Part shown: in pieces, positions 4,127 through 24,217 of the stretch
How positions within the stretch are numbered: position 1 is the stretch's first letter
How the letters are laid out: each line of letters begins with the position of its first letter
NCBI GenBank assembly: GCA_965227835.1
Contig: OZ245768.1
Location: forward strand, 150,001-182,000
Direction of reading: 5' to 3'
Origin: Candidatus Saccharimonadota bacterium
Lineage (GTDB): Bacteria > Patescibacteriota > Gracilibacteria > BD1-5 > UBA6164
Length of the DNA: 32,000 nt
The notes under the pieces: model-generated
The model's database searches: none
The model's input: only the letters and a program-made list of their open reading frames with translations
What the model was told of the DNA's origin: nothing
Program-made: the position numbers and the translations under genes

Positions 4127-4468
4127 ATGAAAAATTTATTTTTTCTTTGTTTTAGCATAATGAGGATAATTTACTTATTTGTAAATTATCAAGTACTATT
4201 TGCTTCAAAAATGGAAAAAGCTTATTTGATTTCTTTAATCAAAAAATTGAAATCTGGAGAAGAAATAGACTATCAAGATGCTTTTTTCCTAAACTTTTAT
4301 GTAAAGTGCAGATACTTTCTTAATGATAATAGTAATAGGGAGACTAATATTTTATCTTTTTTTACTAAAAGAAATCCTAAAGGTTTATATCTTTGTGAGT
4401 CAGAAAGATTTTCTAACAAGTATCCCTTAATATATAAGATGCTTTTATCAAAAAAAGCTTTATGCTAA
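4127..4468 (+). CDS. Hypothetical protein, 113 aa
   Basis: Complete ORF in the supplied track. AAGGAG lies 8 nt upstream of the ATG and an intrinsic terminator follows directly. Confidence 0.5.
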   Translation: MKNLFFLCFSIMRIIYLFVNYQVLFASKMEKAYLISLIKKLKSGEEIDYQDAFFLNFYVKCRYFLNDNSNRETNILSFFTKRNPKGLYLCESERFSNKYPLIYKMLLSKKALC

Positions 4469-6711: not shown

Positions 6712-8328
6712 ATGTTAATTTATAATACTAAAACAAGAAAAAAGGAAATATTTAAGCCTATTTCAAGCAGGGAAGTGAAGGTCTATTTTTGTGGTCCTAC
6801 CCCATATAATTTTGCTCATATATGAAATTTGAAAACATATGTTTTTGAAGATGTGGTTGTAAAGACTTTGAGGTTTTTATGATACAATTTAAAAACTACT
6901 ATGAATATAACTGATATAGATGATAAGACTATTAGAGATAGTCAAAAAATGTTAGAGAGTCTATCTTCTTTCACAAAAAAATATTCCAAAGCTTTTTTGG
7001 AAGATATAGAAAAATTATGAATTAAAAAAGCAGATAATGTGGTTTTTATATCTAGTTTGATACCAGAAATGGTTAGAATGATTCAAACTATGCTCAATAG
7101 AAAAAATGCTTATTTTTGAGATGATTGAAGTATTTATTTTGATGTTTGTAGTTTTAAGAATTACTGAAAATTAGCAAATTTAGATATTTCTTGATTAAAA
7201 AAATCCGTAAGGATAGATAATGATGAGTATGGAAAAGAAGAAGCTTCTGATTTTGCCTTATGGAAAGCTTGGAAAAAAGAAGATGGTGATAATTTTTGGG
7301 AAGCAGAGTTTTTTTTACCAGATGAGTCTGAAAAACCTAACCTCCAGTCCATTCAAACCTTACCCTCAACCCAATGAACTAGCCCTCACCCTCAGCCTCT
7401 CTCCGGGCAAACCTCACCCCTAAACCTCTCCGAGCAAACCTCACCCCTAACCCCTCTCCTTAGAGGAGAGGGGGATAGAAAAGTTGTTATAAAATGAAGA
7501 CCTGGATGGCATATAGAGTGTAGTGCTTGTAATATGAAATATTTTTGAGCTCAGATAGATATACATATGTGAGGTATAGATAACTTATTTCCTCACCACC
7601 AAAATGAAGTTGCTCAAACAGAGAGTTGTACTAAAAAAGAATTTTCAAGATATTGGATTCATTGATGACATCTTAGTGTGGATGGTAAAAAAATGTCTAA
7701 GTCTCTTTGAAATTTTTATACTTTGAAGGATTTGGAGGATAAATTCAAAGATGTAGATAGATCTGTTTTATATAGAGCTATAAGACTTAGCTTTATGAAT
7801 TGAAAATATAGGGATAGTATAGATTTTAGTTTTGATAAACTTAACCAAATGCTTAATACTATTGTTGGACTGGATAATACTTTGAAAAATGTTTTTTACT
7901 ATAAATCTAGTTTGTGAGATGAAAATTCCAAGTCTAGTATTAGTTTTAGAAATAGTATGCAAGATTTCATAATTTCTTATACAAATGAGCTTGAAGATGA
8001 TTTTAATATACCCAATGCTTTGAGTGTTTTTTATAGTTTTGAAAAATTTGTGAATACTTGAATTAGAAAAAATGATTTTTCTTTTCCAGAGGTTAGTTCC
8101 ATTTTGGATATGTTTAAAACATTTAACGAGGTTTTATCTATAATGGATTTTGATATTTTAGATTTAAACAATTTTATTCCTAGTGATATTTCTTCAAAAT
8201 TGGAAAAAAGAAATGATGCTAAGAGAAAAAAGGATTTTGTTTTGGCTGATAGTTTGAGAAATGACATAGAGTCTCAGGGTTACAGAGTTATTGATGATAG
8301 AAATTGAAGTAGAGTTGAAAAATTTTAG
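6712..8328 (+). CDS. cysS: Cysteine--tRNA ligase with ~50-aa in-frame insertion, 538 aa
   Basis: [59 protein letters not shown] and KMSKSLGN are all present. The frame is continuous from ATG 6712 to TAG 8326-8328 with TGA as Gly. Confidence 0.95.
7399..7473 (+). repeat. GC-rich tandem duplication plus perfect hairpin inside cysS
   Basis: The 25-nt core ctctccg(g/a)gcaaacctcacccctaa occurs at 7399-7423 and 7426-7450 (period 27 nt, or 9 codons). It is followed by cccctctcc-ttaga-ggagagggg at 7451-7473. Line 7381-7440 hand-counts to 37/60 GC. Confidence 0.85.
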
Positions 8329-9884
8329 ATTTCAGGAGCTTCTTTTATTGAGGTTTTAATATTTGAGTTATTCAAAGCTTCTTTAAATTCATTGAATAAA
8401 AATCCATTTACAATACTTTCTCTTTCTACAAATTTATCTTTAAATAGTTTTATTATTTTGCTTTCTCCATGAGTGTTTACTTCTGCTATATCTCAACCTG
8501 CATTTCATCCATTTATCCTAATTATTTTAAACACCGTATCTTCTAGACTAGAATTTTCAGGTATTTCACCGAGTCATACTGATTTTATTATTTTTCCTAA
8601 AAATAGTTTTACCTCATTTTCATCAAGGTAGTTGCTGTCAGCTTTTATGTTTATACTTCATATAGATCTTAATATGTCTGATCTTATGTCCCATAATTCT
8701 TCAAGTCCTGTTCTTTCTAATACATTGTAAAAGTTTACTATGTTTTCCATGGCCTCAGGGCTTTTTTGTATTATTGCATATTCTTGTTTATTTATTCAAT
8801 TTATTTTTTCTCAATTTTGAGTTTCTATACTTATATTTCAGTTTTCATATATATTTAATTTGTGGGTTGTGTTTAGAGAATTGTTTGTTTCTTGGTTTTC
8901 GTCATTTAAGTTATATTCTTCATTTGTTACTTCACTATTTCTTTGTTCTTGTATTTGGGTTTTTAATTCAAATCTTTCATAGTTTATTTTTAGCCTTTTA
9001 TTATAATTTGCTAATTTCTTTTTAAGTATATCTAATAGTTCTTTTTTTTGTTGATCCAATGAGGCTTCACCTTCTAATTCTTCTATTAAAAATATTAATT
9101 GATTTTGATTTAGGTCATTGATACTAGTTATTCATTCTATACCTGTATCATAATCAAATAAGAGTTCGTTTTCTTTTATAAATTCAAGAAAAAATTGATT
9201 GTCTACTTCATTATCAATTATTGCATTTGATAAATCTAATTTAGATTCCATGAAATTACTACTTTTTTCTTTAAGTTCCACATGATAATCAATAAATTGA
9301 TTTATAATTCATTCTGAACCTTCCCAAATTTCTGGATTTATGTAATCAACAAGCATGTCTCTAATTTCTCCAATTGTGTATTTTGTATTTGGGTTTAGTA
9401 ATTCATCAATTAATTCTTGATTTATAAGTTCTTGATTTAATTTCTTTGATTCATGTTCTATGTTATATTCTCAATCACATGAAATATTTCTACTTTGTTT
9501 CAATCATTCTATATATCAATATAGTGCTGTTTTTATATCGTTTTTTACTTCATTAAAATTCTTCTCGGATTCAATAACATTATTCTCAAAATAAAGTACT
9601 TTACTAGGACCAGTTATTTCAGGTCTTTTATCTATATTTTTCAATTCATAAAATTCTCTTCTCAAATCTTCCAATTCATTTTTAGTGATTTCACTTTCAC
9701 TTTTTATAGCTTCTTTTATTTTTTCTTTCAAATCTGAATATTCTCTTTCTGCATTTTTATACCTATCTGATCTTGTTGTTGAACCTTGCTCAATTCTAGA
9801 CAATATTAAATTTCACTCCTCAATTAAACTTTGAGTAGATTTTTTTACCTCCTCGTTTGTATTTAAATAGTTTAAGTTTTCCAT
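8325..9884 (-). CDS. Hypothetical acidic, helix-rich protein, 519 aa
   Basis: The minus frame is open from ATG 9884 to TAA (complement of 8325-8327), with many in-frame TGA; every triplet was checked. It merges track ORFs 8838-9059 and 9516-9803. Its stop overlaps the cysS stop by 4 nt. Confidence 0.65.
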
Positions 9885-9974
9885 AGTTTTTATTTATTTT
9901 TTCTTTAATTTTAACATATACTTTTATTTTTTACAAATAACTGGCATAATATTTTCCTTTTGTCTTAAACTTTC

Positions 9975-10010
9975 ATAAAAAAAGAGCTCTCTTGATTTCA
10001 AGAGAGCTCT
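9975..10010 (-). terminator. Rho-independent terminator ending the six-gene operon
   Basis: A 12-bp perfect stem agagctctcttg / caagagagctct with a 4-nt loop. On the minus strand it is followed by TTTTTT, 19 nt past the TAG at 10029-10031. Confidence 0.75.
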
Positions 10011-10028
10011 TTAGTATTTCGGTTTTTT

Positions 10029-11720
10029 CTAGTTTGAAGAATAAGTTCTAGAAAAAGCCTGTTTTATTTGTTCATCCCAGTCTGATATAGATCCTTGAGG
10101 GTCTACCCAAACTGTTATGTTGTACCTAGGGTCTGTAATTGCTAGCTCTGGAAGTCCTCCTGCTAAATTTCCTTTTTGTGCTAGAGTTACAGCAGTTGAA
10201 AGAAAATAAAATCTTCTTTCTCCTGCAATATCACGAATATGAGGTCTATTTTCAACAACAGATGCTTGACGTCTATTTGATTCATCGACATACTGTTTTG
10301 GTTTTAGACTCTCGGAAGGGTCTTGTTTAGAGTCTGGAGTTAGTATATTACCATACCCAACCCAGTTATATTCTTTTTTTGAACCAGCGACGTCATCACC
10401 AATTGTAGAACATCCTGTAAGACGTTCTCCTTTATTGGAATGATGATAGTAGTATATTTTATCACTACTATCAACCGGTGCAAAAAGTGATACAGATAAA
10501 CCTGAACGAGCTGATATAAAAGGTTCAAGACAAAAATAAGCGAATAAACCTTTTTCTCCACTTTCATTTTCTTCAGATTTATTTAGTTGTTCCACATATT
10601 GCACAAAAGGTTGAGGATTTAGATCCCAAGAAGAATCGGGTATCCTGACATCACCTTCATGTGCTAAACCTGGAAATGGTCCCATAAATCCATTTTGAAA
10701 TCTAAAAGATGTAGCTTCAAATCTATGTACTTTTTGAGGTTTTAAATTTTGTCCTTTCAAAAAGTCATAGTTTTCTATATCTTCAGGGGAAACATATTTT
10801 CCCTCCCCCAAGAAAGTTCTAAGAATACCATCTATCCAATCTCTTTCTTTACATTGTTTGAGGATATAAACTCCCGCAAACTCTATTTTGGGAAAAAAGA
10901 TACCAGACCACTTAGACATTGAAACTACTTGTACGAAATCTCCTTTATCGTCTTTTACATACTTAACTCCTTCGGGAAAATAGCTAAGAAATTTCCAAGG
11001 ATTTAGACGTTTTTTGACAACGTTTAGAGTATTATTCCAGTACAAAAGACCTTCTCCGGAGGGAAAACATACATTTTCTATATCCTCGAAGTTTGGTGAG
11101 GGGCTCTCAGCTGATACTGAAAATATTTGATTTATATCTTGAGTCATTCTTCCCCATCTTTTATAGGGATAAATTTCTAAGTTAAATCTAATATTCCCAT
11201 TATCCATAATTCGATCTGGAATTTGTATAGACTCAGATTCGCTTATCTTTTTTGTTGCCAAGACCATCACAGAGTTCAATGGTTGTGGAGTTACTTTTGT
11301 TGTTAATGGTAGTTCATCTAGTTCTACCCAGTCTACATTTTGGTATTTAAGATAAGAAGAAATATATTGTGTTACACCAAAATATGTATATGGCACAATA
11401 CAAAATAAACCTATAATACCAAATGACCAAGCAGTTTTTTTAAGCTTTACTTTTGAAAGACCAATTGTTATTAGATATATTACTAACAACATAAATACAA
11501 CAAAGAGATACTCTCTAACAACTATAACATACTCATGCCATATAGACCTCAAAAGTATTAGTGTAATAAAAAGGAAAAACATAACTACACGAAAAATTTT
11601 ACTTTTCCATATGCTTTGTAGACCGTTTTTTATACCAGAACAAGTATTTCTTACTAACCAGTATATTGCTCCTTTCTCTTCCTCGTCTACTTTGTTTATG
11701 TCATTGTTTATGTCACTCAT
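10029..11720 (-). CDS. Island gene 6: membrane protein, three N-terminal TM helices plus ~440-aa probably extracytoplasmic domain, 563 aa
   Basis: The track ORF runs to 11747, but the ATG at 11720 (MSDINN) has AAGGAGG 6 nt upstream and gives the same 8-nt overlap style as the other junctions. TM segments are FRVVMFFLFITLILL, YLFVVFMLLVIYLITIGL and AWSFGIIGLFCIVPYTYFGV. TAG stop. Confidence 0.8.
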   Translation of the reverse strand: MSDINNDINKVDEEEKGAIYWLVRNTCSGIKNGLQSIWKSKIFRVVMFFLFITLILLRSIWHEYVIVVREYLFVVFMLLVIYLITIGLSKVKLKKTAWSFGIIGLFCIVPYTYFGVTQYISSYLKYQNVDWVELDELPLTTKVTPQPLNSVMVLATKKISESESIQIPDRIMDNGNIRFNLEIYPYKRWGRMTQDINQIFSVSAESPSPNFEDIENVCFPSGEGLLYWNNTLNVVKKRLNPWKFLSYFPEGVKYVKDDKGDFVQVVSMSKWSGIFFPKIEFAGVYILKQCKERDWIDGILRTFLGEGKYVSPEDIENYDFLKGQNLKPQKVHRFEATSFRFQNGFMGPFPGLAHEGDVRIPDSSWDLNPQPFVQYVEQLNKSEENESGEKGLFAYFCLEPFISARSGLSVSLFAPVDSSDKIYYYHHSNKGERLTGCSTIGDDVAGSKKEYNWVGYGNILTPDSKQDPSESLKPKQYVDESNRRQASVVENRPHIRDIAGERRFYFLSTAVTLAQKGNLAGGLPELAITDPRYNITVWVDPQGSISDWDEQIKQAFSRTYSSN

Positions 11721-12348
11721 TTTTTCCTCCTTTGCCGAAACTTTCAAGTTTATCTATATAGTACTTATCATTTGGTTCTTTGTCTTGAGTTGGGTATGCG
11801 TTATTTTTGTCCTCAAATTCCTGTTTTTTATTTTCACTATCTTTTTTAGTGAGAATGCTTTTTTTAATTGCATCTCCAGCGTCACCTGATTTTTCTATTA
11901 TGGTTTGTTTTGCTCTATCTCCAGCTTTTTGTATCTCATCTTTTAAATTTATTTTGCCTGTCTGGATATCATCACTTCTGTCCAGACCCCATTTAAAAGA
12001 ATCAACTAATGTGACAGCTAGAGGTGTAAATATAAAACCTATCCATATAAAGAAGTGTAGCAATACATATAATAGTAAATCTACATATAAAGGCATTGCA
12101 TCAGGAATCCAAAAAGTTATAAACTCAATTGTTGCTGCGAAAGGTGTTGCATTTATAAGTTTACGCTTAATTGTTTGCCCATACACAAAACCTTTATTAT
12201 CTTCCATTGTAATTCGATTTTTAGGAGAGTTTATAAGGTTATGAAACCATATATAAAACTTTCTAAAAAGACCTTTTTTTTGATCTTTTACTCCTATGAA
12301 CATACCAATTACAATAGAAGTAATAGTCCATCCAATTATTTCATTCAT
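11713..12348 (-). CDS. Island gene 5: small membrane protein with charged Gly/Asp/Lys-rich C-terminal tail, 211 aa
   Basis: AGGAG SD. Hydrophobic segments are IIGWTITSIVIGMFIGV and PLYVDLLLYVLLHFFIWIGFIFTPLAVTLV, followed by a hydrophilic tail (GDRAKQTIIEKSGDAGDAIKK...). It ends at TGA (11713-15) in an ATGAGTGA overlap with gene 6. Confidence 0.8.
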   Translation of the reverse strand: MNEIIGWTITSIVIGMFIGVKDQKKGLFRKFYIWFHNLINSPKNRITMEDNKGFVYGQTIKRKLINATPFAATIEFITFWIPDAMPLYVDLLLYVLLHFFIWIGFIFTPLAVTLVDSFKWGLDRSDDIQTGKINLKDEIQKAGDRAKQTIIEKSGDAGDAIKKSILTKKDSENKKQEFEDKNNAYPTQDKEPNDKYYIDKLESFGKGGKNE

Positions 12349-13603
12349 AATTAACTCCTTTGTAGTGATTCATAATTCTCCAAATTACCCATTTCCTTTT
12401 TGATTTAGACCAAGTAAAATATTGTTTGTAAAACTTTTCTTTGTTAAATCTATACAGTTGTATAACTTTTTCAGGAAATAGGAATGTTAGAAGTATATTT
12501 ACAGCTTGCTTAAATCCTGGGTTAACCTTTGTTGGACGAAGTAGTAAACCTCTAAGTTCTTTAGATAATTCATTTACTTCTTTTCCCATTCTAAGCGACT
12601 GAATTAGTTTCTCAATTTCGAAATAAACCTCTGGAATATCTTTTTCATACTCTATAAGGTATGATTTTTTCTGAGTACTTGGTATTTCTGAATATTCTAG
12701 ATTTTCAGGGTTTTTGTTACAAACCACATCAGCTAGTATATCATCTTTCATTCTTTCCAATTCATTTAAATTAGAACTGTAGAATCCTAAGTCCAAAGTA
12801 AGAATTCCAAATTTTTCTAGCTTTTCTACTAGATTATCTTCATCTATACTCATAACTAGTAGGTCTTTATAAGGACTTTCTAGTATTTGATTATCTTGTT
12901 TTTCTACTCTAATCATCAAGGTTTTGTCTTCGCTTCCAAAGTCACGAAATACAAATGTCCCTCCATAATTTCTAGTGAAAAACGATGAAGCTTCATCAAA
13001 AAATATGGGATGAAGTAATATATTCCTTCGTCTTAAATCACCGTGTTGTTCAGAGCTTTCTATTAGCTTTTTTCTGACTTCGGGATCTTGCCACATATCT
13101 TCACTTTTTTCGAAATCAGCTACTAATTTTTTTTGTTGTCTTGCTATTTCTTCTATCTTGTTTGGTGTTGAAGGAATAACTTGGTAATAACCAACCATTA
13201 ACAGATCAAATGGAGTTGTGAATCTAGAAATACCATTTTCTATATCCAAGCATACTCCTGACATGGTTGTTATATCCATTAAAGGTTTTTTAAGTTCATG
13301 ATATACCCTTTCTATAAGAAAGGAATCAAAAGAATAATGACGAAAATAAAGAGATGCTTTGGCCTGTTCTACACTTAGTATAATACCAACTGTATTACTA
13401 GGACCGTGAGTCAGATACATTTCATCATCTTTTTCCTTTGATATATCAGGTGACCATCCTAATTTATCTATACTAAAACTTTTAAGCTTAGTTGTAGGTA
13501 AACCTAGATGTTTAAGGCATTGGTTATACCTTTCAACCATTTCTTCGGTGTTTACATCGAAGAGATTCGCTCCTATGAGCTCTGCTTTTTTTAAATGTTT
13601 CAT
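12341..13603 (-). CDS. Island gene 4: hypothetical protein, 420 aa
   Basis: Uninterrupted standard-code ORF with AGGAG 7 nt upstream. It ends at TGA (12341-43) in an ATGAATGA overlap with gene 5. No motif recognised. Confidence 0.8.
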   Translation of the reverse strand: MKHLKKAELIGANLFDVNTEEMVERYNQCLKHLGLPTTKLKSFSIDKLGWSPDISKEKDDEMYLTHGPSNTVGIILSVEQAKASLYFRHYSFDSFLIERVYHELKKPLMDITTMSGVCLDIENGISRFTTPFDLLMVGYYQVIPSTPNKIEEIARQQKKLVADFEKSEDMWQDPEVRKKLIESSEQHGDLRRRNILLHPIFFDEASSFFTRNYGGTFVFRDFGSEDKTLMIRVEKQDNQILESPYKDLLVMSIDEDNLVEKLEKFGILTLDLGFYSSNLNELERMKDDILADVVCNKNPENLEYSEIPSTQKKSYLIEYEKDIPEVYFEIEKLIQSLRMGKEVNELSKELRGLLLRPTKVNPGFKQAVNILLTFLFPEKVIQLYRFNKEKFYKQYFTWSKSKRKWVIWRIMNHYKGVNYE

Positions 13604-13628
13604 TTAAATCTCCTAGTTTGTGAATTTG

Positions 13629-13663
13629 GAGTAAGGAGGGATTTATCCCTCCTTACTCTTTTT
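13629..13663. other. 13-bp perfect GC-rich hairpin between island genes 3 and 4
   Basis: gagtaaggaggga-ttta-tccctccttactc. The T-run follows on the plus strand only, so this is not a classical terminator for the minus-strand operon. Confidence 0.7.
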
Positions 13664-13689
13664 GCAATACCAGAGAAATATATGACTCT

Positions 13690-15621
13690 TTAAGAGGTTC
13701 TTCTTCTAGCCTCTGCTTGAATCCTCATATGATCTATAGTTTGTTCAACCTTTCGTTCAAAATCTTTGTTAGATATTTGAGCTAGGTTGTCAAAATAAAA
13801 TACAGCTTCTTCAAGATATATGTCCACAAAGGACTTCCCTTGAAGGCTAGATCTTATCAAATCTATAATCATTGATTTCTTTTCATCATAATCTTTTTTG
13901 AAAAAGATTAGAGGATCATTGAGCCATTCATCTGGGAAGTCAAAGTCAAAGATTCTAGTCTTGACAGCTGACTGTATATTTCTTTTATCACGAGATGTGT
14001 ATATGAATTTACTTGCTATTTGTGTATCAAGATAGGCAAAAAATTCGGGAGAGTTTTCCTCGTGCTTTTTCCTAGCTTTTTCCAAAATTTCAGCTATAAG
14101 CTCTACTTTAGATGTAGATTTTCTTTCATACTCTTCTTTAATTTTTTCAGTTAAAGATTGAGCTGACATATACTTGTAGCTTTTTGGAGTAGAAAAATCA
14201 GTAAATCCAGGTATAAGTTTTTCAATAGGTTTAATCAAACCTATATAATCTTGATCGAGAAAGTCTTCTTCTGTCTTAGCTCCAGCCATATGAGTACGAC
14301 CTTGCACACGACTTAAAACGGCTTTATCAATTTTTTCTGGAAGATTTGTATATAGGTTTATTAAGTTATTTCCTCTATCTATTGCATATGCTCCTTCTGT
14401 CATTCTCAAAAAAACTCCAACGACTTCTGAAACACCTGCACTTACACCTTGTGATGATCTATCTTGTAGATTATTTTCGGCATCATCTATGGGTGCAAAT
14501 ATGATATGCTTAGGATCATTTAGTATGGGATTGAACCATGCTATAGCTCTCTCTGCACTACCACCTTGATATGTTGAAACAATATTATCAGGGAAGGGGT
14601 GAAATAAGAAAGGTATACCTAGCTCTTTACAACGATCACTTAGTTCAGATGCAATTGCTGCTATTTCCATACTCTTACCAGTTCCTGGAGGACCATATAC
14701 TAGTTTTGTCCTAAAAAAACCACCTAGATCTTTCAAGGGATTTCTCTGTGTTGTAGGATCGTAGCACATAAGCCCCATAATACTTCTTTTAGCCGAATGT
14801 TTTGACTCTACATTTCCTACTATATCACCCCATTCTACTCGGTTAAACTCTACATGGCTTGTATGTCCGGGAAGACTAAATTCAAAACCCTGTATTGAAA
14901 ACTCACTATCTTCAAGTTTATATCCCGAAGATTTAAATATTTCAATATATTTAAATGCATTTTCTTTTGCTTTAATTTCGTCTATTATAGCTTGAAAATA
15001 CAATAGAGTCATTTTTAGAAAAGTTAGTTCATCATGTACCTTACCAGATTTTTCTAAGTAAGATCCATAGTAGAACAAAACACATTTACGAGCCATAGAA
15101 GAATTAACTAAACTCAATTCGGGAATTCCTTCAAATTCCATATGTATTGACTCTAGTTCATTATCCTTGTAGTTGGATAGTTCATGTACTACATAATATG
15201 CAGATACAAAAGCCATTATAGCTGCTGAAGTTGTAGCTTTCTCCCTAAATTCAGATTGCCTTTGTTGAGATAATCCTCTTTCTTTTTGCATCACATCTAG
15301 ATTAGATGCTTTATCAAAAAGTTCAGATATTTTGGAACCAAGCATAAAAGCTTCACGGACAGTTAAGTAAGCTTTGTTAACTCCTTCTGTCATTGCAAAA
15401 CCTTTTTTGCTTATATTGATTGCAAAGTTGGCAATTGAAATGGTTTCTTCTTTACCACCTGTCATTACTGAATGAGCAACATCTAAATTACTACTACTTG
15501 TGTTAGCAAATGAACTTTTTGCTGACTTCCAATCAGTTTTTTTCATGAAACCATCAACAATTCTTGAAAATTCTTTGAGGGATTCATGATCAACTTTATA
15601 CAAATTAGATTTTTCAGACAT
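13690..15621 (-). CDS. Island gene 3: classical AAA ATPase (Vps4/katanin/spastin-like core) with ~290-aa helical N-domain, 643 aa
   Basis: Walker A is LVYGPPGTGKS (14671-14694) and the Walker B region is IIFAPIDDAE (14476-14505). STYQGGSAERAIAWF resembles SKYxGESEKLVRxLF. TNLPEKIDKAVLSRVQGR resembles the ATNxPxxLDxAxxRRF second region of homology. TAA stop. Confidence 0.85.
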   Translation of the reverse strand: MSEKSNLYKVDHESLKEFSRIVDGFMKKTDWKSAKSSFANTSSSNLDVAHSVMTGGKEETISIANFAINISKKGFAMTEGVNKAYLTVREAFMLGSKISELFDKASNLDVMQKERGLSQQRQSEFREKATTSAAIMAFVSAYYVVHELSNYKDNELESIHMEFEGIPELSLVNSSMARKCVLFYYGSYLEKSGKVHDELTFLKMTLLYFQAIIDEIKAKENAFKYIEIFKSSGYKLEDSEFSIQGFEFSLPGHTSHVEFNRVEWGDIVGNVESKHSAKRSIMGLMCYDPTTQRNPLKDLGGFFRTKLVYGPPGTGKSMEIAAIASELSDRCKELGIPFLFHPFPDNIVSTYQGGSAERAIAWFNPILNDPKHIIFAPIDDAENNLQDRSSQGVSAGVSEVVGVFLRMTEGAYAIDRGNNLINLYTNLPEKIDKAVLSRVQGRTHMAGAKTEEDFLDQDYIGLIKPIEKLIPGFTDFSTPKSYKYMSAQSLTEKIKEEYERKSTSKVELIAEILEKARKKHEENSPEFFAYLDTQIASKFIYTSRDKRNIQSAVKTRIFDFDFPDEWLNDPLIFFKKDYDEKKSMIIDLIRSSLQGKSFVDIYLEEAVFYFDNLAQISNKDFERKVEQTIDHMRIQAEARRRTS

Positions 15622-16684
15622 AGTTTAAGTTTCCTTCTTTGTCAAATGAAAATATTCTTGATTTGTCAAAAATATCTCCTGCTTGTTGATGAATTTCATA
15701 TGGTAAAATTACAATAGATTCTCCATTTGAAATGCCTCTACTGTATAATTCAGTATCATATTCGGGAACATGGAAAATTTCTCTTTTTTGTTCTCCTCTA
15801 AAAAATGAGTTACTTATTACCTGTTTTGCGGAGAATACATGTTCATGTCTCATAAGTATTATGAACCTCCTACCTGTATCTCCTAAAGATAAAAGAGAAT
15901 TTATTTCATCATTAGAATGAGAACTAAAACCTTCTGCATAAAAAGGACCAATAGATATTCTTTTGATGATTTTTGGGTGAACTTTTCTTAACTCTTCGTC
16001 AATTGATACGGCAACTATATTTAGATTTGGTGCCCTTGTACCATTTGATTTTACGGTTTTAAAAAACTCTTGCATTGCCTCTTCAGACTCATGAAAGACT
16101 TCATCGTATGATGTCTCAAAAACCATAATATATATATAAGGGATGTTAGTTGAATAATCAAAAGTTGCCCAATAATACATATATTCTTTATCATTATTTA
16201 GTCTTATCAAATTTCCTGGAGAAAATAAATGAAACTGTTCTTTAGAAAATAACATATCTAAAAATGTCCTTTCAGACATCTTTTTGAGTAGATCTATTGG
16301 ATCCTCGTTATTCTCAAAAATAGAGTCTATTATTTTTCTCTTGATTGTTAGTTGTGGTAGTAATCCTTTTATTTTAGATTCACCTTCAGTCATATCTGTT
16401 TCAAGAGATGAGAATTCATAGTGAGAAGGAAATCCTGAGTCACAAGAGTTAATTTTTAACTCTTTATCACTATATAGGTATTTCATCCTGAGACATTGCA
16501 TTGAATTCAAAAATCTTTTCAGATAATTCCTAACTATTTCCTCTTCTTCGTTTTCACTCACAGATGTTTTTTTGTAAATTTTCAGTAATGTTTCAAAAGA
16601 GACACCAATTTTTGCAAAATATCTTTCAAATTCATCTCCTTGTAGAGGTAAATTTTCTAAGTTATCACTAATTTGTGTATTCAT
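15614..16684 (-). CDS. Island gene 2: hypothetical protein, 356 aa
   Basis: Uninterrupted standard-code ORF with a GAGG-type SD. It ends at TGA (15614-16), overlapping the next ATG by 8 nt (ATGTCTGA). No motif recognised. Confidence 0.8.
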   Translation of the reverse strand: MNTQISDNLENLPLQGDEFERYFAKIGVSFETLLKIYKKTSVSENEEEEIVRNYLKRFLNSMQCLRMKYLYSDKELKINSCDSGFPSHYEFSSLETDMTEGESKIKGLLPQLTIKRKIIDSIFENNEDPIDLLKKMSERTFLDMLFSKEQFHLFSPGNLIRLNNDKEYMYYWATFDYSTNIPYIYIMVFETSYDEVFHESEEAMQEFFKTVKSNGTRAPNLNIVAVSIDEELRKVHPKIIKRISIGPFYAEGFSSHSNDEINSLLSLGDTGRRFIILMRHEHVFSAKQVISNSFFRGEQKREIFHVPEYDTELYSRGISNGESIVILPYEIHQQAGDIFDKSRIFSFDKEGNLNYV

Positions 16685-16705
16685 AATTTTAATCCTCTAT
16701 TATTG

Positions 16706-16738
16706 TGAGAAAAAGAGAGGGACACTAGGCCCCTCTCT
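16706..16738 (-). terminator. Intra-operon terminator/attenuator-like hairpin after island gene 1
   Basis: The minus strand reads agagaggg-gcctagtgt-ccctctct followed by TTTTT. It lies between the stop at 16772 and the next ATG at 16684. Confidence 0.55.
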
Positions 16739-16771
16739 GTTGTTTTTTGTGATTGAAGCTATTTTCATCAT

Positions 16772-18052
16772 CTAGGATTGTTCAGCCCAATGAGAAAACT
16801 GGCTTTCAGTAGGGTCTATTCCATATTTTGATGTCATTTTCTCTACCATATCTTTTATATTAGAATCAGCTTTTGAAATATGCTGAGTAAGAGCACTTTG
16901 AGTTTCTTGCATTTTGCGAAGACGATCTGGATGCGCTCCAATTTTATCTGCCATTATCTTATCAGAAGCAACTGTAGTTTGTGCCATATATTTAGCATTT
17001 TTATCATCTACTTCTGCTCCTAAATCATCAAGTTTTTTAGCAATTTCTTGATCCGAAGATGCTTTCATTGCTTCTAACCTTGATTTGAATGTAATGACTC
17101 GTTCTTCGGTATCAGATTCAAGAGTTTTAATCCAAATTAACTGATTGTTACGGAGTTTTTTCTGAGCTGCCTCGTGAATTTCCAACTCTTTAACAAACTT
17201 TTCTTTGGACTGAAATACTCCCAATGCTACATCTCTAGTACCTTTTGCATCTTCAAGCTTTGATTTTAAGTCTGATATTTCTTTCTCTTGAGCTGTATAC
17301 TCTGGACTACCATTAGGCATACCATTGAGGGTTTGTTCAGCATCATATAGATTGTTTTCTATATCTGATACATCATCCTCAGCATTTTTAAGTATTACTG
17401 CTTGTCTTTCTTTTTCAGCAAAAGCTTCTGCTTTTCTTGCTTCTACAGCTTTGACTTGCTTATCTATTTCTTCCTTACGATCTTTCATTATAGATATTGT
17501 CTTAGCAACACGATTTTGAAAATCTTGCAGGGAATCTTCCATAGAAGCAGATAGCAATCTTTGCCGCATAAGTCTGTTTGCTTCAACTTTTGCTTGATTA
17601 AGTTTTTCTTTTGACATTTCCAAGTTAGCTTCAGCTTCCTCGATTCTGCTTTTTTTGAAAACCCAAGAGTTTTTTGCATCTTCCAGTAATTGTTCAGCTT
17701 TAGCTAATTCAGCTTTAGCACTATTAATTAACCGTTGTTCTTCAGGGGTTAATTGAGTTAGTTGTTCATAAGATCCACCTAATTGCTCAATTATTATGTT
17801 TAGACCAAATACTGCCTCAGCTAAATCTTCTTCTTCTTTAACTACACTTTTTCGTAGTTCATCCATTCTTGTTTCAAGAATTTCTGTAACTCTATCTCTT
17901 TCTTGATCATTCTCGATTTTTGAGGCTTTTTCAAGTTCAAGTTGAGTTTGTTCCATTTCAGCAAGTATATTACTTTCTCTGACTTTTTGCATATGTTGTT
18001 CAGAGCTTTGAAGTAATTCCTGCATTTGAGAGGTTTTTTGCATATCAGTCAT
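16772..18052 (-). CDS. Island gene 1: long alpha-helical coiled-coil protein, 426 aa
   Basis: Uninterrupted standard-code ORF with AAGGAG 8 nt upstream of the ATG and a TAG stop. The sequence is E/K/Q/A-rich with heptad-like periodicity throughout. No enzymatic motif and no TM segment. Confidence 0.85.
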   Translation of the reverse strand: MTDMQKTSQMQELLQSSEQHMQKVRESNILAEMEQTQLELEKASKIENDQERDRVTEILETRMDELRKSVVKEEEDLAEAVFGLNIIIEQLGGSYEQLTQLTPEEQRLINSAKAELAKAEQLLEDAKNSWVFKKSRIEEAEANLEMSKEKLNQAKVEANRLMRQRLLSASMEDSLQDFQNRVAKTISIMKDRKEEIDKQVKAVEARKAEAFAEKERQAVILKNAEDDVSDIENNLYDAEQTLNGMPNGSPEYTAQEKEISDLKSKLEDAKGTRDVALGVFQSKEKFVKELEIHEAAQKKLRNNQLIWIKTLESDTEERVITFKSRLEAMKASSDQEIAKKLDDLGAEVDDKNAKYMAQTTVASDKIMADKIGAHPDRLRKMQETQSALTQHISKADSNIKDMVEKMTSKYGIDPTESQFSHWAEQS

Positions 18053-18117
18053 AATACTTCTCCTTTTGACTATATATTTTCGGGTTATTTTAAAGAACTC
18101 ATTATTCTATATCTATA

Positions 18118-18148
18118 TATTTAGATAATTTAAAAAAATATCTAAATA
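18118..18148. promoter_or_regulatory. 10-bp perfect inverted repeat upstream of the island operon (candidate operator)
   Basis: tatttagata (18118-27) and tatctaaata (18139-48) are separated by 11 nt, 66-96 nt upstream of the gene 1 ATG. Confidence 0.35.
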
Positions 18149-18284
18149 CTAATATATAAAGAATAACTTAATATCTAATTTACAATTCAGTCAATATAAG
18201 TCAAGTTTTTTTTGCTTTTTTTTGTTTTTTTATTATAAAATAGAAAAATTTTCAGCTATATTTCTTATATTAAAGGGAAAAAAT

Positions 18285-18327
18285 AAAACTATTTAATATT
18301 AACAAAAACTTAATATTAAATAGTTTT
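18285..18327 (-). terminator. Terminator of grxB
   Basis: An 18-bp perfect stem aaaactatttaatattaa / ttaatattaaatagtttt with loop caaaaac. A T-rich tract follows on the minus strand. Confidence 0.7.
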
Positions 18328-18352
18328 TTTATAAACTTCCACAATTTTTTTC

Positions 18353-19003
18353 TTAAAATGCTCTATCACTATACAAATCAACATTTGATTTTCTAGATAT
18401 TTTTTCTAAATAACTTTTAACTTTTGGTGGGAAATTTAGGTTTTTTACACAAGTTAGACTACGAAGTATAGGGAATAGACATATGTCTTCGTAGGTGTAT
18501 GTATTTTTTGCAATAAAATTTTCTTGTGTTTCAAGTTCTTCCAAATATTTCTCCATTTTTTTGATTAGTTGTGGTGTTTCTTGTAAACGAGTTTCAAAAT
18601 TTCATATAAACATTTCTTTTTTGTTTTTGAAGTATTCTATGTCTTTTTGTGTTTTAAATTCTTCTAATCACATTTTTATAAATCTTGGTATTACTAATTG
18701 ATAGGTAGTTGCTCATACACTATTTAACCAAGTTTGAATTTCTTCCTGTTCTTCTTTTTCAAGGATTTTGTCTCCATAGTTTTCATCTAAATATTCTACT
18801 ATATCAAGACTTTCTATCATATATTTTTTGTCTTCATACTCCAAAATTGGTACTAGTTTTTTTCATACTAGGTCATAGTGAGATTTTTCATCTGCATTTT
18901 GTATTATTATGCTTTCATATGGTATGTTTTTTAGTCCGAGTATCATTCTTACTCTTATGCAATATGGGCAATGATCGTAGTGGTAGAGTTTTAGTTGTGT
19001 CAT
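18353..19003 (-). CDS. grxB: Glutaredoxin 2, 216 aa
   Basis: LKLYHYDHCPYCIRVRMILGLKNIP, LVGKKLVPIL and LFPILRSLT are collinear with E. coli Grx2 (KLYIYDHCPYCLKARMIFGLKNIP, MVGQKQVPIL, LFPLLRNLT). Open from ATG 19003 with TGA as Gly (checked). Confidence 0.9.
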
Positions 19004-19105
19004 AGTTTTTTGGGGTTATTTTTTAATGCGGGTAATTAAATTTTTATTTTGGAGATTAATTTGTATTATATGAAAAATTATTTTATTTTCTAATTTTAAA
19101 GTAGT

Positions 19106-22100
19106 ATGGAAACACAAAGTAAATCCTTCTCTAGTTTTACAAACCTGTATGAATTAAGTAAGACTTTAAGATTTGAGTTGAATCCAGTGGGAGAGACTCA
19201 AAAATTACTTGATGAAAATCAAGTGTTTCTCACTGATAAAATAAGACAAAAAAAATATGAAGAAATAAAACCTTTTTTAGATGAATTTCATGGTGATTTT
19301 ATAAAATTTTGTCTTTGAGATTTAAGTTTGGATTTTCAAGATTATAAGGAATCTTTGAATAAATATCAAAAAGATAAAAAAAGTAAGGAATGAGAAAAGA
19401 GAAAACAAATTTCAGAAAAGAATTTAAGAGAAAGTATAAGAGAGAAATTTGATTCAAAAGTTATAGAATTTTTAGAAACTTTTTGAAAAGTTGAGATTTT
19501 TAGCTGAAAAAAAGAAAAAATAAAAGTAGTCCTTGAAAATATCTGAGAAATTGAATTTTCTAAGAATAATCATGAATTTCTTTTTGAAATTTGAATTTTT
19601 GATTTAATGAAAAAGAAGTTTGAGTGAAAATGAGATATTTATGTTACAAATAAAGAAACTTGAGAAATCTATAAAAATAAAAAAACTTGAAAAGATATAA
19701 CTATTTTTGATGATTGGAATGGTTGGCTAGGTTATCTTACAAAATTTTTTAAAACAAGAAAGAACTTATATAAATCTGACACCTCAACGGCTTTAGCTAC
19801 AAGAATAATAGATCAAAATTTGAAAAAGTATTGTAATAATTTAGATATTTATAAAAAATTATTAGAAAGAGAAGAATTAAAAAATAGGTTTAAAATCTTA
19901 GAAGAAGATTTTTGAATAAATTTGGAGGATTTTTTTAGTTTGGGAAAATATAATGGTTGTATATTACAAAGTGATATACAAAAATATAATGATATTATTT
20001 GATGAAAGGTTGTTGATAAGAATAAAAAAATTCCATGAATAAATGAACATATAAATAAATATAGGCAAGACTCTTGAGAAAAATTATCATTTTTAGAAAA
20101 ACTTGATAAACAAATTTTAGCTTGATGAAAAGATAGTTTCATAGAACAGATAAAAGATGAAGAAGATTTTAAAAATATTTTAAGTGATTTCTATAATGAT
20201 TCTGTAAAAAAGGTAGAAATTTTGACTCAGATTTTTGAAAATTTGAAAAATTATAATGAAGAAGATTATAAAACTATATATTTCTCAAAAGAAGCATTTA
20301 ATACTCTTTCTCATAAATTTACAGATCAAGTTTTAGTTTTTGAAAAATTAGTTTTTGAAGAGTTGTTACAATATAAATTAGTTGAAAAGAAGCATTTTGA
20401 TAAAAAAGAGGAAAAATATAAATTTCCTGATTTTATAGCATTATACTACATAAAAAAATGATTAGAAAAATATAGTAGTGAAGATTTATTCTATAAACTA
20501 AGGTATTATGAAAATGAGATAATAGAAAAAAATAGTGAAAATATTTGGAATAAATTTTGTAGTATTTTAAGCTATGAGTTTAAAGCTTTAATTTCAAATA
20601 AAATTATAAATCAAAATGGAGAAGAGGTAGAAATTTGATTTGATATTTCAAAAGATAAATTAGAAAAGATTTTAGATAATTTTTCACTTTGAGAAAAAAA
20701 TAATGGAGCAATAAAAGATTTTGCAGATATAGCGAGGAATATTTATCAAATGTGAAAGTATTTTGCCTTAGAGAAAAAAAGAGAATGGAATCCTAACGAT
20801 TTTTATACCCTGAATAGGGATTTTTATTCTGAATGAATAGAAAATAAATCTGGATATGGAGATTTCTATAATGAGGCTTATGAACAAATCATAGTTCCTT
20901 ATAATTTGATGAGGAATTTTATTGCTAAAAAACCTTGGGAGGATAGTAAGAAGTGGAAATTGAATTTTGAAAATTCAAGTTTACTCAAGGGTTGGGATAA
21001 AGAATTTGAAAGTTATTGAGCTTATATTTTTGAAAAAGAATGACTTTATTATCTATGACTTATAAATGGAACAAAGCTCAATAAAGAAGAAATTGAAAAG
21101 TTATATATTCTAAACTCTCAAAATATAGCTAAAAGGTTTGTGTATGATTTTCAAAAACCAGATAATAAAAATACACCTAGATTATTTATTAGATCAAAAT
21201 GAGATAGTTTCGCTCCAGCAGTAGAAGAACTTAATTTGCCAATAAATGATATCATTGATATTTATGATAATGAACTTTACAAGACTGATAAAAATAATCC
21301 AAATACACACAGGGAAAGTTTAGAAAAACTTATTGATTATTTCAAATTATGATTTTCAAAACATAAATCTTACAAACATTTTAATTTTGTTTGGAAAGAA
21401 AGTAGTGAATATAAAAATATTGCTGATTTTTATAGGGATGTAGAAAAATCATGCTATAAACCATATTGGGAAGATATAAATTTTGATGAATTAAAAAATC
21501 TTACAAAAGAGAAAAGAGTGTATTTATTTCAAATTTATAATAAAAATTTTGAACTAGATAAAAGTATAGCTCCTGAAAATTATATTTTTAAATGAAATGG
21601 GAGAGATAATGTTCATACAATGTATTTTAAGTGAGTATTTTCAAAGTATAATATAGAAAATATTAGCTGAGTGAATATAAAACTAAGTTGATGATGAGAA
21701 ATATTTTTTAGACCAAGAGCGATTGATGAAGAAATTGATGTGAAAAGAAAAACAAAAAGAGATGTTATTAAAAATAAAAGATATACTCAAGAAAAAATTT
21801 TTTTACATTTTCCAATTCAAGTAAATTTCAAAGAAAATAAAGCTTTGAGTTTTAATAATTATGTAAATAATTTTTTAGCAAATAATCCTAACATAAATAT
21901 TATTTGAATAGATAGATGAGAAAAGCATTTGGCTTACTATTCTGTTATAAATAGGAAGCAAGAAATTATTGAAAGTGGAAGTCTAAATTATATTTATCAG
22001 AAAGATAAAGATTGAAATATTATTAAAAAATCAGAAAAAGAAATAAAAGAAAAAAGAAATAGTGAGTGAAAAATCATTGACTATGAATTAGTTGAAACTT

Positions 22101-23574: not shown

Positions 23575-23608
23575 TGTACAAAAATTATAATATAATTATA
23601 CAAAAATT

Positions 23609-23866
23609 ATGCAATTTACTACCACCACTCAAATAGCAAGAAAATGAAGTAAAATATTTGAAATTCACAATGAAGCTATAGTCCTATCAAACAATAAGCC
23701 AGTTTGAGCAATATTAAATTATAAGATATATGAAAGATTAAAATCATCATGATATTTAGATGAAGTAATACAAGATAACGATCTTTGACCAAAAGACTAT
23801 CTCACATGACTAGAAAAAAATTTAGAAGAATGGAACAACGATACACATGATAACTTATTCACTTAA
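23609..23866 (+). CDS. Phd/YefM-type antitoxin, 85 aa
   Basis: The N-terminus TQIARKGSKIFEIHNEAIVLSNNKPVGAILNYKIYERL matches the Phd/YefM pattern. It lies 9 nt upstream of the toxin gene. Confidence 0.65.
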
Positions 23867-23875
23867 ATACTTTTT

Positions 23876-24217
23876 ATGGATTTTAAACAATGAGAAATTG
23901 TTTATATAAAATTTCCTTTTACAAATTTATCAAAATATAAACTGAGACCAGCACTTGTTATATCAAATAATTCATATAACAAAAAAGATAATCTCATACT
24001 CATCTGAATATTTTGAAATGAATGAATAAAAGAGTTTTCTTTGTCAATAGAGGAAAAAGATTTGCAAAATTGAAAAATGTTAAAACAATCTTTCTTAAGG
24101 TTCCAAAATATATTTTCGCTAGATAAAAACTTGATAGAAAGAAAAATATGAGCAATAAAAAATAAAAAGCTGGAATATGTGTATAAAAAAATTAATATGT
24201 ATTTAGAAATAATATAA
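23876..24217 (+). CDS. MazF/PemK-family endoribonuclease toxin, 113 aa
   Basis: QGEIVYIKFPFTNLSKYKLRPALVIS matches the PemK/MazF N-terminal signature (G-D/E-I-x-x-x-x-F-P-F-x-D-x-x-x-x-K-x-R-P-A-L-V-I-S). Confidence 0.8.

Follow-up and report, generated by a model that had tools for sequence, protein, structure and literature searches.

A six-gene operon free of in-frame TGA in a genome that reads TGA as glycine: probable recent acquisition of a standard-code operon, with predicted read-through at three stop/start overlaps

The window analysed here is a 32,000-nucleotide stretch of a Candidatus Saccharimonadota genome placed by GTDB in the Gracilibacteria (contig OZ245768.1, positions 150,001 to 182,000). 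Its minus strand carries an operon of six genes, g1 to g6, three of which end in TGA within a chromosome that decodes TGA as glycine. We consider it probable, at roughly two chances in three, that a standard-code operon was horizontally acquired by this host in recent times and that its three TGA stops are now read through. The six genes are:

g1, 16772..18052, minus strand: 426-aa coiled-coil protein; stop TAG; Shine-Dalgarno (SD) site AAAGGAG; opens the conserved operon in relatives.
g2, 15614..16684, minus strand: 356-aa protein without known function; stop TGA inside ATGTCTGA; C-terminus matches that of homologues.
g3, 13690..15621, minus strand: 643-aa AAA+ ATPase of the classic clade, Cdc48/VAT-like; stop TAA.
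g4, 12341..13603, minus strand: 420-aa DUF6638 protein (Pfam PF20343, 8e-38); stop TGA inside ATGAATGA.
g5, 11713..12348, minus strand: 211-aa membrane protein; stop TGA inside ATGAGTGA.
g6, 10029..11720, minus strand: 563-aa membrane-anchored, beta-rich protein; stop TAG; SD site AAAGGAGG.

Under the bacterial code almost no long open reading frame (ORF) is present outside 10-18 kb of the window, and the flanks become filled with genes once TGA is taken as sense. With three stops, ORFs of at least 100 codons cover 0.44 of the window length; with two, the figure is 1.18 (both strands summed). The ORFs for Cas12a (1,380 codons, 58 TGA) and for a class B penicillin-binding protein (PBP; 762 codons, 46 TGA) are open only with TGA as sense. 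Ten flanking host genes contain 213 in-frame TGA versus 83 GGN codons, TGA being 72% of the glycine-type codons and about 4% of all codons; TGA and GGN together make up 5.6% of codons and TGG 0.8%. The meaning of TGA was read from alignments of host proteins, with TGA masked as X, against PDB structures. TGA positions in the PBP (against SpoVD/PBP, 7rcz) and in CysRS (against 8qhp) align to conserved glycines, with matches in KTGT, HxGH, KMSKSLGN and GRPGWHIEC, and at no position in these two alignments does TGA align to tryptophan. The flanking chromosome decodes TGA as glycine and not as tryptophan (genetic code 25), as a preliminary description of this DNA had held. All named best matches of the CysRS come from Candidatus Gracilibacteria (54-59% identity), and these matches, with the type V-A CRISPR-Cas locus of the window, point to a host in the Gracilibacteria or Absconditabacteria, of which such loci are typical (PMC10746230). 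In every Gracilibacteria (BD1-5) genome open to a 2019 study prfB went undetected, and UGA decoding as glycine has been confirmed by proteomics (PMC6851277).

The six operon genes (10029-18052) have a foreign composition. They contain no in-frame TGA versus 130 GGN in 2,619 codons, a contrast with the ten flanking genes that gives a Fisher p of 3e-52. The GC content is 31-33% in the segment that holds them and 22-25% in the flanks. An SD site stands ahead of all six (AAGGAG, AGAGGA, GAAGGA, TAGGAG, AAGGAG and AAGGAGG), compared with 0 of 8 host genes in the window and 0 of 10 and 3 of 21 on the related contigs L090 and L091.

L090, an 18-kb metagenomic contig reached through P0012, a homologue of the window's CysRS, is 92-95% identical in DNA to the window flanks and shares their gene order (MurL-PBP-...-MscS-CysRS-f6-Grx2-Cas12a, with Grx2 for glutaredoxin 2). 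Its positions 12638-13013 align with window 9637-10014 and its positions 13009-13873 with window 18328-19191; window 10015-18327 has no counterpart. The resulting empty site reads CTCTTTAG-AAAG-CTTCCAC. Both edges of the extra segment are clean and intergenic, one lying 14 nt past a stop codon and the other 275 nt ahead of a start codon, and a promoter-like region lies inside it upstream of g1. The segment sits in a variable region beside the type V-A CRISPR-Cas locus. Its limits and borders are:

10015..18327 (boundaries +/- 4 nt), minus strand: the probable inserted island, 8,313 bp, missing at the orthologous L090 site.
18353..19003, minus strand: host glutaredoxin-2 gene (f7) with 4 in-frame TGA, at the island border.
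8325..9884, minus strand: host gene f6, of no known function, with 13 in-frame TGA, at the island border; its orthologue adjoins Grx2 in L090.
18282..18330, minus strand: AT-only hairpin with a T-run at the upstream end of the island, directly past the host Grx2 stop; absent from L090.
9981..10012, minus strand: candidate host intrinsic terminator with 15-nt perfect arms, kept at the empty site (L090 12980-13011).

The hairpin at 9981-10012 lies 16 nt past the g6 stop and now serves the island. Its 15-nt perfect arms, 2-nt loop and A/T runs recur in hairpins at L090 7737-7768 and L091 652-683, and it is most simply read as the host's own Grx2 terminator. A Grx2 origin of this hairpin favours insertion over deletion. 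The segment is probably a horizontally acquired island, inserted between the Grx2 stop and its terminator.

Operons with the same gene order occur across several phyla of standard-code bacteria, namely in Chitinophagales (L001), Candidatus Buchananbacteria (L002), Vibrio (L088), Sinorhizobium (L089) and a 57%-GC Gram-negative bacterium (L094) whose GC content at third codon positions (GC3) is 0.72 in operon and neighbours alike. A DUF6638 gene next to an AAA+ ATPase gene, with the order kept, was found in L001-L007, L088, L089 and L094. A metagenome scan with the g3 profile returned mostly unrelated AAA ATPases through their Walker A pattern, and the only true relatives in it were L008 and L009, at 40%.

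Overlapping stop and start codons (ATGA, ATGNNTGA) serve termination-reinitiation coupling in standard-code operons. The three junctions of the island that contain a TGA stop are all ATGNNTGA overlaps of this kind:

Junction 1, 15614..15621, minus strand: ATGTCTGA, g2 stop overlapping g3 start.
Junction 2, 12341..12348, minus strand: ATGAATGA, g4 stop overlapping g5 start.
Junction 3, 11713..11720, minus strand: ATGAGTGA, g5 stop overlapping g6 start.
Predicted g2 read-through tail, 15605..15613, minus strand: ...LNYV-(TGA)-KI-TAA, with the TAA at 15605-15607; 3 residues, GKI.
Predicted g4 read-through tail, 12263..12340, minus strand: ...VNYE-(TGA)-NNWMDYYFYCNWYVHRSKRSKKRSF-TAG; 26 residues, out of frame in g5.
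Predicted g5 read-through tail, 11599..11712, minus strand: ...GKNE-(TGA)-HKQ-(TGA)-HKQSRRGRERSNILVSKKYLFWYKKRSTKHMEK-TAA; 38 residues, out of frame in g6.

With TGA as glycine the g4 tail reads GNNWMDYYFYCNWYVHRSKRSKKRSF and stops at the TAG at 12263-12265; the g5 tail is very basic, contains a second TGA at 11701-11703 and stops at the TAA at 11599-11601. The TGA sites of g2, g4 and g5 fall where homologous proteins have their C-termini, and no homologue contains anything that corresponds to the tails. The ATGTCTGA overlap of g2 and g3 is identical in L003, L004, L005 and L007, with a variant, ATGGCATCTGA, in L002. Because this junction is kept in homologous operons elsewhere, the comparison indicates that the TGA stops were inherited from the operon family and did not evolve in the present host. 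At the g4/g5 junction L003 and L001 have an ATGA overlap, and L004 and L092 have TAA plus a spacer. The preliminary description had given the positions and sequences of the three overlaps (15614-21, 12341-48 and 11713-20) exactly, and its gains of 3, 26 and 38 residues were reproduced by translating through the TGAs. Its reading of the junctions as standard-code coupling overlaps agrees with the conservation of ATGTCTGA in L003, L004, L005 and L007. Its premises (the glycine code, the overlaps and the tails) thus stood, and what it had not recognised was the underlying cause, a foreign island.

The next TAA or TAG past the three TGA stops lies 2, 25 and 37 codons away. Off-frame distances in the island genes have a median of 9, with probabilities of 0.14 for at least 25 and 0.05 for at least 37; the distances are ordinary or long, and there is no selection for close back-up stops. 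On the sister contigs L004, L005 and L007, g2 likewise ends in TGA inside ATGTCTGA and a TAA follows two codons on. Adaptation to the host as the origin of the back-up TAA that lies two codons past the g2 TGA was ruled out, as L004 and L007 have the same TAA.

The comparison with L090 also bears on timing. Across 2,903 codons of host orthologues, window and L090 show 83.6% codon identity, and 9.8% of synonymous third positions differ. Among about 139 sites, 120 TGA and 17 GGA codons are conserved and 2 are swapped between GGA and TGA; 2 other GGN/TGA swaps bring the count to about 2-4 in all. Roughly 5% of GGA codons would convert over this divergence. Had the island arrived at the split, at most about 3 of its 61 GGA would be expected as TGA, and zero is unremarkable. 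The insertion most likely postdates the split from L090, a genome about 93% identical in DNA. The suggestion in the preliminary description that the system is too recent to have been ameliorated is directly supported by the lack of the 8.3-kb segment at this site in a contig 92-95% identical, and over that divergence host genes show only the small number of swaps just given.

We propose the following course of events. The operon would have evolved under the standard code, its overlaps giving termination-reinitiation coupling in hosts with release factor RF2. It would then have been inserted between the stop codon and the terminator of Grx2, beside the type V-A CRISPR-Cas locus. If it is transcribed, ribosomes should place glycine at the TGA codons and continue into the following gene in another frame, so that g2, g4 and g5 acquire C-terminal tails of 3, 26 and 38 residues. 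Peptides predicted across the TGA sites are NLNYVGKI, GVNYEGNNWMDYYFY and GGKNEGHKQGHKQSR. Release would occur 14, 78 and 114 nt past the downstream start, within g3, g5 and g6. Coupling would be lost, and each of g3, g5 and g6 would need de novo initiation at its own SD site, of a kind that host genes do not show. Extended C-termini and disturbed coupling, another of the options in the preliminary description, are what is predicted should the operon be expressed.

Several observations weigh against recent acquisition from a standard-code source. Synonymous usage in the island (GC3 0.20, Ile ATA 0.56, Lys AAA 0.85, Arg AGA 0.57) is already near that of the host (GC3 0.15, Ile ATA 0.61); in operon relatives GC3 is 0.29-0.45, Ile ATA 0.10-0.18, Lys AAA 0.60-0.69 and Arg AGA 0.23-0.27. 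Amelioration in place was ruled out as the source of the low GC3, with only about 10% synonymous divergence from L090. As the AT-rich usage was not gained here, recent arrival requires a low-GC, SD-using donor. No donor was found, the nearest operon relatives being only 58-59% identical. Family searches (Pfam, PADLOC, NCBIfam, PHROGs) detected no integrase or transposase domain in the island, and its edges show no target-site duplication, flanking direct repeat or attachment site; there is likewise no tRNA target at the island. The polarity of the event, insertion or deletion, rests on terminator style and not on an outgroup: L091, the more distant relative, is without the whole f6-Grx2-Cas segment, and the region is variable. 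Finally, two short contigs, L092 and L093, carry the closest g6 relatives (58% and 53-55% identical), and on both a convergent downstream DUF2461 gene (L092:2827-3336 and L093:2527-2880; Pfam 3.6e-51) is readable only with TGA as glycine. This gene has 7 in-frame TGA in L092 and 3 in L093, at HIEPG, FIGGGAYRP and APKGYPRDHP. L092 and L093 are TGA=glycine genomes, yet not one TGA stands among the 893 and 789 codons of their operons, which is compatible with a more prolonged association with hosts of this kind. The preliminary description had proposed comparison with relatives that use table 25; in L092 and L093 all visible stops, those of g4, g5 and g6, are TAA.

The TGA-free operons of L092 and L093 are central to the least unlikely of the alternatives, in which the operon, a code-neutral, "bilingual" cassette legible under either code, lives in TGA=glycine bacteria, passes between them and is prevented by selection from gaining in-frame TGA. 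Such a cassette would either shuttle between code-25 episymbionts and standard-code bacteria or need translation when UGA decoding is disturbed, for example by infection with a standard-code phage. The window copy would be one more member, and code-25 genomes would have been entered at least twice, with one entry in the lineage of the window and another in that of L092/L093. In L092 and L093 the operons occupy one shared locus, TGA-free beside the TGA=glycine DUF2461 gene. Four-fold G/T differences within the operon genes give an expectation of 4.6 GGA/TGA sites between these two copies, against 0 seen (P about 0.01); the sister contigs L004 and L006, for which the host code is unproven, give 2.4 and 6.8 expected and 0 seen. 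Operon GC3 also tracks host GC3 in both lineages (0.20 vs 0.15 in the window; 0.26-0.32 vs 0.24 in L092/L093). High expression is not the cause of the avoidance: ribosomal protein S15 uses TGA for three of its four glycines in L090 and two of three in L091, and the notion that highly expressed genes avoid TGA was rejected on this evidence. The code-11-compatible phages of such hosts offer a published precedent (PMC10746230). The statistic, however, comes from a single pair of short contigs whose flanks are proven, and it presupposes co-divergence of the copies inside code-25 hosts; the flank gene is twice as diverged as the operon (52% of synonymous codons, compared with 24-30%), and the operon may postdate the host split. 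Moreover, of the three TGA stops of the window copy two lack a near back-up, a state that selection within a TGA=glycine host would not be expected to preserve, and in the L092 subclade all stops are safe; the island, which carries no mobility genes, is missing from a genome 93% identical. We regard a cassette of this kind as unlikely, although the TGA-free copies of L092 and L093 hint that selection favours code neutrality.

It is more doubtful still that the island is old in its lineage and was deleted from L090, its lack of TGA then reflecting constraint instead of youth. Consistent with deletion, the junction has no target-site duplication, there is no polarising outgroup, and the 16 nt that separate the g6 stop from the hairpin at 9981-10012 are a natural spacing. 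The hairpin nevertheless has the host terminator architecture, and one end of a deletion would have had to fall exactly between this hairpin and the g6 stop, the other exactly between the AT-only hairpin and the Grx2 stop. Long residence is further opposed by the three TGA stops, which are unsafe, and by SD sites still intact at all six genes in a non-SD genome.

An assembly artefact, in which a fragment from a standard-code organism was joined into a Gracilibacteria contig, is very improbable. GC content, code usage and SD use all switch abruptly at both island ends, as such an artefact would produce. Against it, both joins are clean, intergenic and inside a contig of 1,489,121 bp, and two chimeric joins would be needed 8.3 kb apart, exactly around a complete promoter-operon unit. 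The GC3 of 0.20 and the preference for ATA, AGA and AAA also indicate a very AT-rich genome, unlike all sequenced operon relatives.

We give least credence of all to termination at the three TGAs through a retained RF2 or local context, with native C-termini and intact coupling: efficient TGA termination would be lethal because about 4% of codons in the ten neighbouring genes are sense TGA, at conserved glycine positions, and it would truncate almost every host protein; the stop hexamers TGAAAA, TGAAAT and TGACAT occur 20, 17 and 2 times (39 in total) as sense glycine contexts in the ten host genes; and prfB is undetected in the Gracilibacteria (BD1-5) genomes available to the 2019 study (PMC6851277), so that the context-specific termination considered in the preliminary description is unlikely.

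We return to the preferred reading, a recently acquired standard-code operon, and to what its genes encode. All six ORFs are intact and full-length relative to homologues, which is compatible with either function or youth. The AAA+ ATPase g3 is matched by the Pfam AAA family at 1e-11 (45.9 bits) and, in a profile comparison against PDB, by VAT/Cdc48 at 3e-13; its Walker A (GPPGTGKS) and Walker B (DDAE) motifs are invariant, and every invariant g3 residue is retained. The PF20343 score of g4 is 130.9 bits (gathering cut-off 27), and our literature search found no paper naming DUF6638. Family searches assigned g1, g2, g5 and g6 to no family, and in Pfam scans of their homologues the sole family matched was DUF2333, in the Sinorhizobium gene that lies downstream of DUF6638. 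The AlphaFold (AF2) model of g6, which is confident (pLDDT 87.5, pTM 0.84), shows a helical membrane anchor at the N-terminus and a beta-rich domain for which Foldseek against PDB gave no neighbour at E < 1e-3 (best 3.5e-3, TM < 0.2). The g4 model is poor (pLDDT 67) and had no Foldseek match. PADLOC returned only P-loop-level matches, at E >= 8e-4, to mad8 and IetA. A role as a defence system was considered and found no support, as PADLOC, PHROGs and NCBIfam gave P-loop similarity alone. A phage or plasmid origin likewise gained no support: the plasmid and chromid matches are 23-26% identical and are native operons of Vibrio and Sinorhizobium, the island has no match in IMG/VR or among GenBank phages and no informative PHROG match. 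The 33 adjacent CRISPR spacers show no match to the island beyond 10-11 nt.

Two hairpins lie between genes of the operon and are possible attenuators that set the stoichiometry of its products:

16714..16738, minus strand: GC-rich, terminator-like hairpin with a T-run, between g1 and g2.
13629-13658: hairpin with perfect 14-nt arms (GAGTAAGGAGGGAT/ATCCCTCCTTACTC), between g3 and g4.

Upstream of g1 in L004 (560-800), three direct copies of TTTCTGTGTCCAAAGCA are spaced by about 60-75 nt and are possibly an operator or some other regulatory repeat; the window has nothing resembling them upstream of g1.

In this Gracilibacteria lineage the leaders of host genes consist of A and T only (in the window at starts 1341, 6712, 19106, 24335 and 30306, for example), and translation initiation in the host may run largely without SD sites. 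On L091 two adjacent small signal-peptide genes (8132-8620 and 8765-9232) are SD-led and have 13 GGN and no TGA, compared with a genome average of 64% TGA; their GC3, 0.14-0.20, is host-like. In the window an ORF at 4127-4468 has an AAAGGAG leader and is TGA-free, with too few glycine codons to judge. Taken together, these cases suggest that SD-led genes without TGA form a broader class in such Gracilibacteria genomes.

The flanks encode a MurL-like protein, the class B PBP, a mechanosensitive-channel-like protein, CysRS and glutaredoxin 2, followed by Cas12a, Cas4, Cas1, Cas2, a 34-repeat CRISPR array with a Cas12a-type repeat and a photolyase. An Rfam scan of the 32-kb window found tRNA-Phe as the sole tRNA and no other RNA element. 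Within the CysRS gene (6712-8328), a GC-rich 27-nt tandem repeat of 2.2 copies (7399-7459) encodes an insertion rich in Ser, Pro, Thr and Gln; it is longer and different in the L090 protein (P0012), and is by this comparison a hypervariable insert in a housekeeping enzyme. A toxin-antitoxin pair (23591-24217) lies within the type V-A cas operon between cas12a and cas4, with a MazF/PemK-like toxin (PF02452, 8e-14) and a weak Phd/YefM-like ORF ahead of it (E 0.004). The CRISPR array (26455-28603) has 34 identical 36-nt repeats (ATTTAATAGCTACATAAAATTTCTACTTTTGTAGAT) and spacers of 26-27 nt. When the window was searched by BLAST, the cas-distal spacers sp28, sp31 and sp33 shared one short-match profile and sp29, sp30 and sp32 another; judged by these profiles, the six seem to be repeats of just two sequences.

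A common proposal is that an alternative genetic code stands in the way of viruses and of gene flow. The island would be a natural example, with an empty site for comparison, of a complete operon passing from the standard code into a TGA=glycine genome. The asymmetry to be expected is that reassignment of a stop to sense lets genes in, at the price of some longer products and broken stop/start coupling only. The three defined tails and the three uncoupled junctions could serve as test objects for measuring the cost of such transfers. Annotation is affected as well. Gene callers that take TGA as sense give a 446-aa g4 in public protein P0001, which is g4 plus its 26-residue read-through tail called with code 4, and an N-terminally truncated g6 in P0131, cut to 487 aa by a start 76 codons late and losing the invariant residues R58 and R69. 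In the public proteins P0001, P0011 and P0131 from the host genome, TGA is translated as tryptophan (code 4) and not as glycine. Given the TGA-free relatives and the SD-led, TGA-free genes, a census of such "standard-code islands" across recoded genomes could reveal if certain genes are held code-neutral.

The nearest published parallel is formed by the code-11-compatible phages that have Gracilibacteria and Absconditabacteria as their predicted hosts (Liu, Jaffe, Chen, Bor and Banfield 2023, mBio; PMC10746230), which are likewise foreign DNA without in-frame TGA. Both they and the island still use TGA stops, and harmless read-through to the next TAA or TAG is expected of both. The island differs in being a chromosomal, non-phage operon with no phage or PHROG hallmarks; the integrated prophages in that study are, every one, code 25 (PMC10746230). 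The TGA stops of the phages have near back-ups (PMC10746230), whereas for two of the three in the island the next stop is 25 and 37 codons away.

Phages with recoded stop codons in hosts of the standard code (Ivanova 2014, Borges 2022, as recounted in passages of PMC10746230) share with the island a mismatch between the code of an element and that of its genome. According to the same passages, these phages have a smaller number of stop codons than the host and need suppressor tRNAs or release-factor changes. The polarity of the island is the opposite: it has more stops than its host, needs nothing for its translation and would gain tails.

The geometry of the junctions is that of termination-reinitiation coupling in standard-code operons, and the g2/g3 overlap is kept across the operon family. 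Unlike there, the overlapped stop is a sense codon here, and coupling should fail, with release 14-114 nt inside the next gene. The uncharacterised DUF6638/AAA+ operons of Vibrio, Sinorhizobium, Chitinophagales and the candidate phyla radiation have the same gene order and families; they match the composition and code of their hosts, unlike the window copy.

Like a classical genomic island, the segment has a deviant composition, is absent from the site of a relative, lies in a variable region by a CRISPR-Cas locus and forms a complete promoter-operon unit. Unlike one, it is without integrase, tRNA target or direct repeats, and its clearest foreign marker is the genetic code together with SD use. 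A horizontally acquired operon is of a known kind; the special point of this one is that it appears to have been caught crossing a genetic-code boundary, in the permissive direction in which the recipient has fewer stops.

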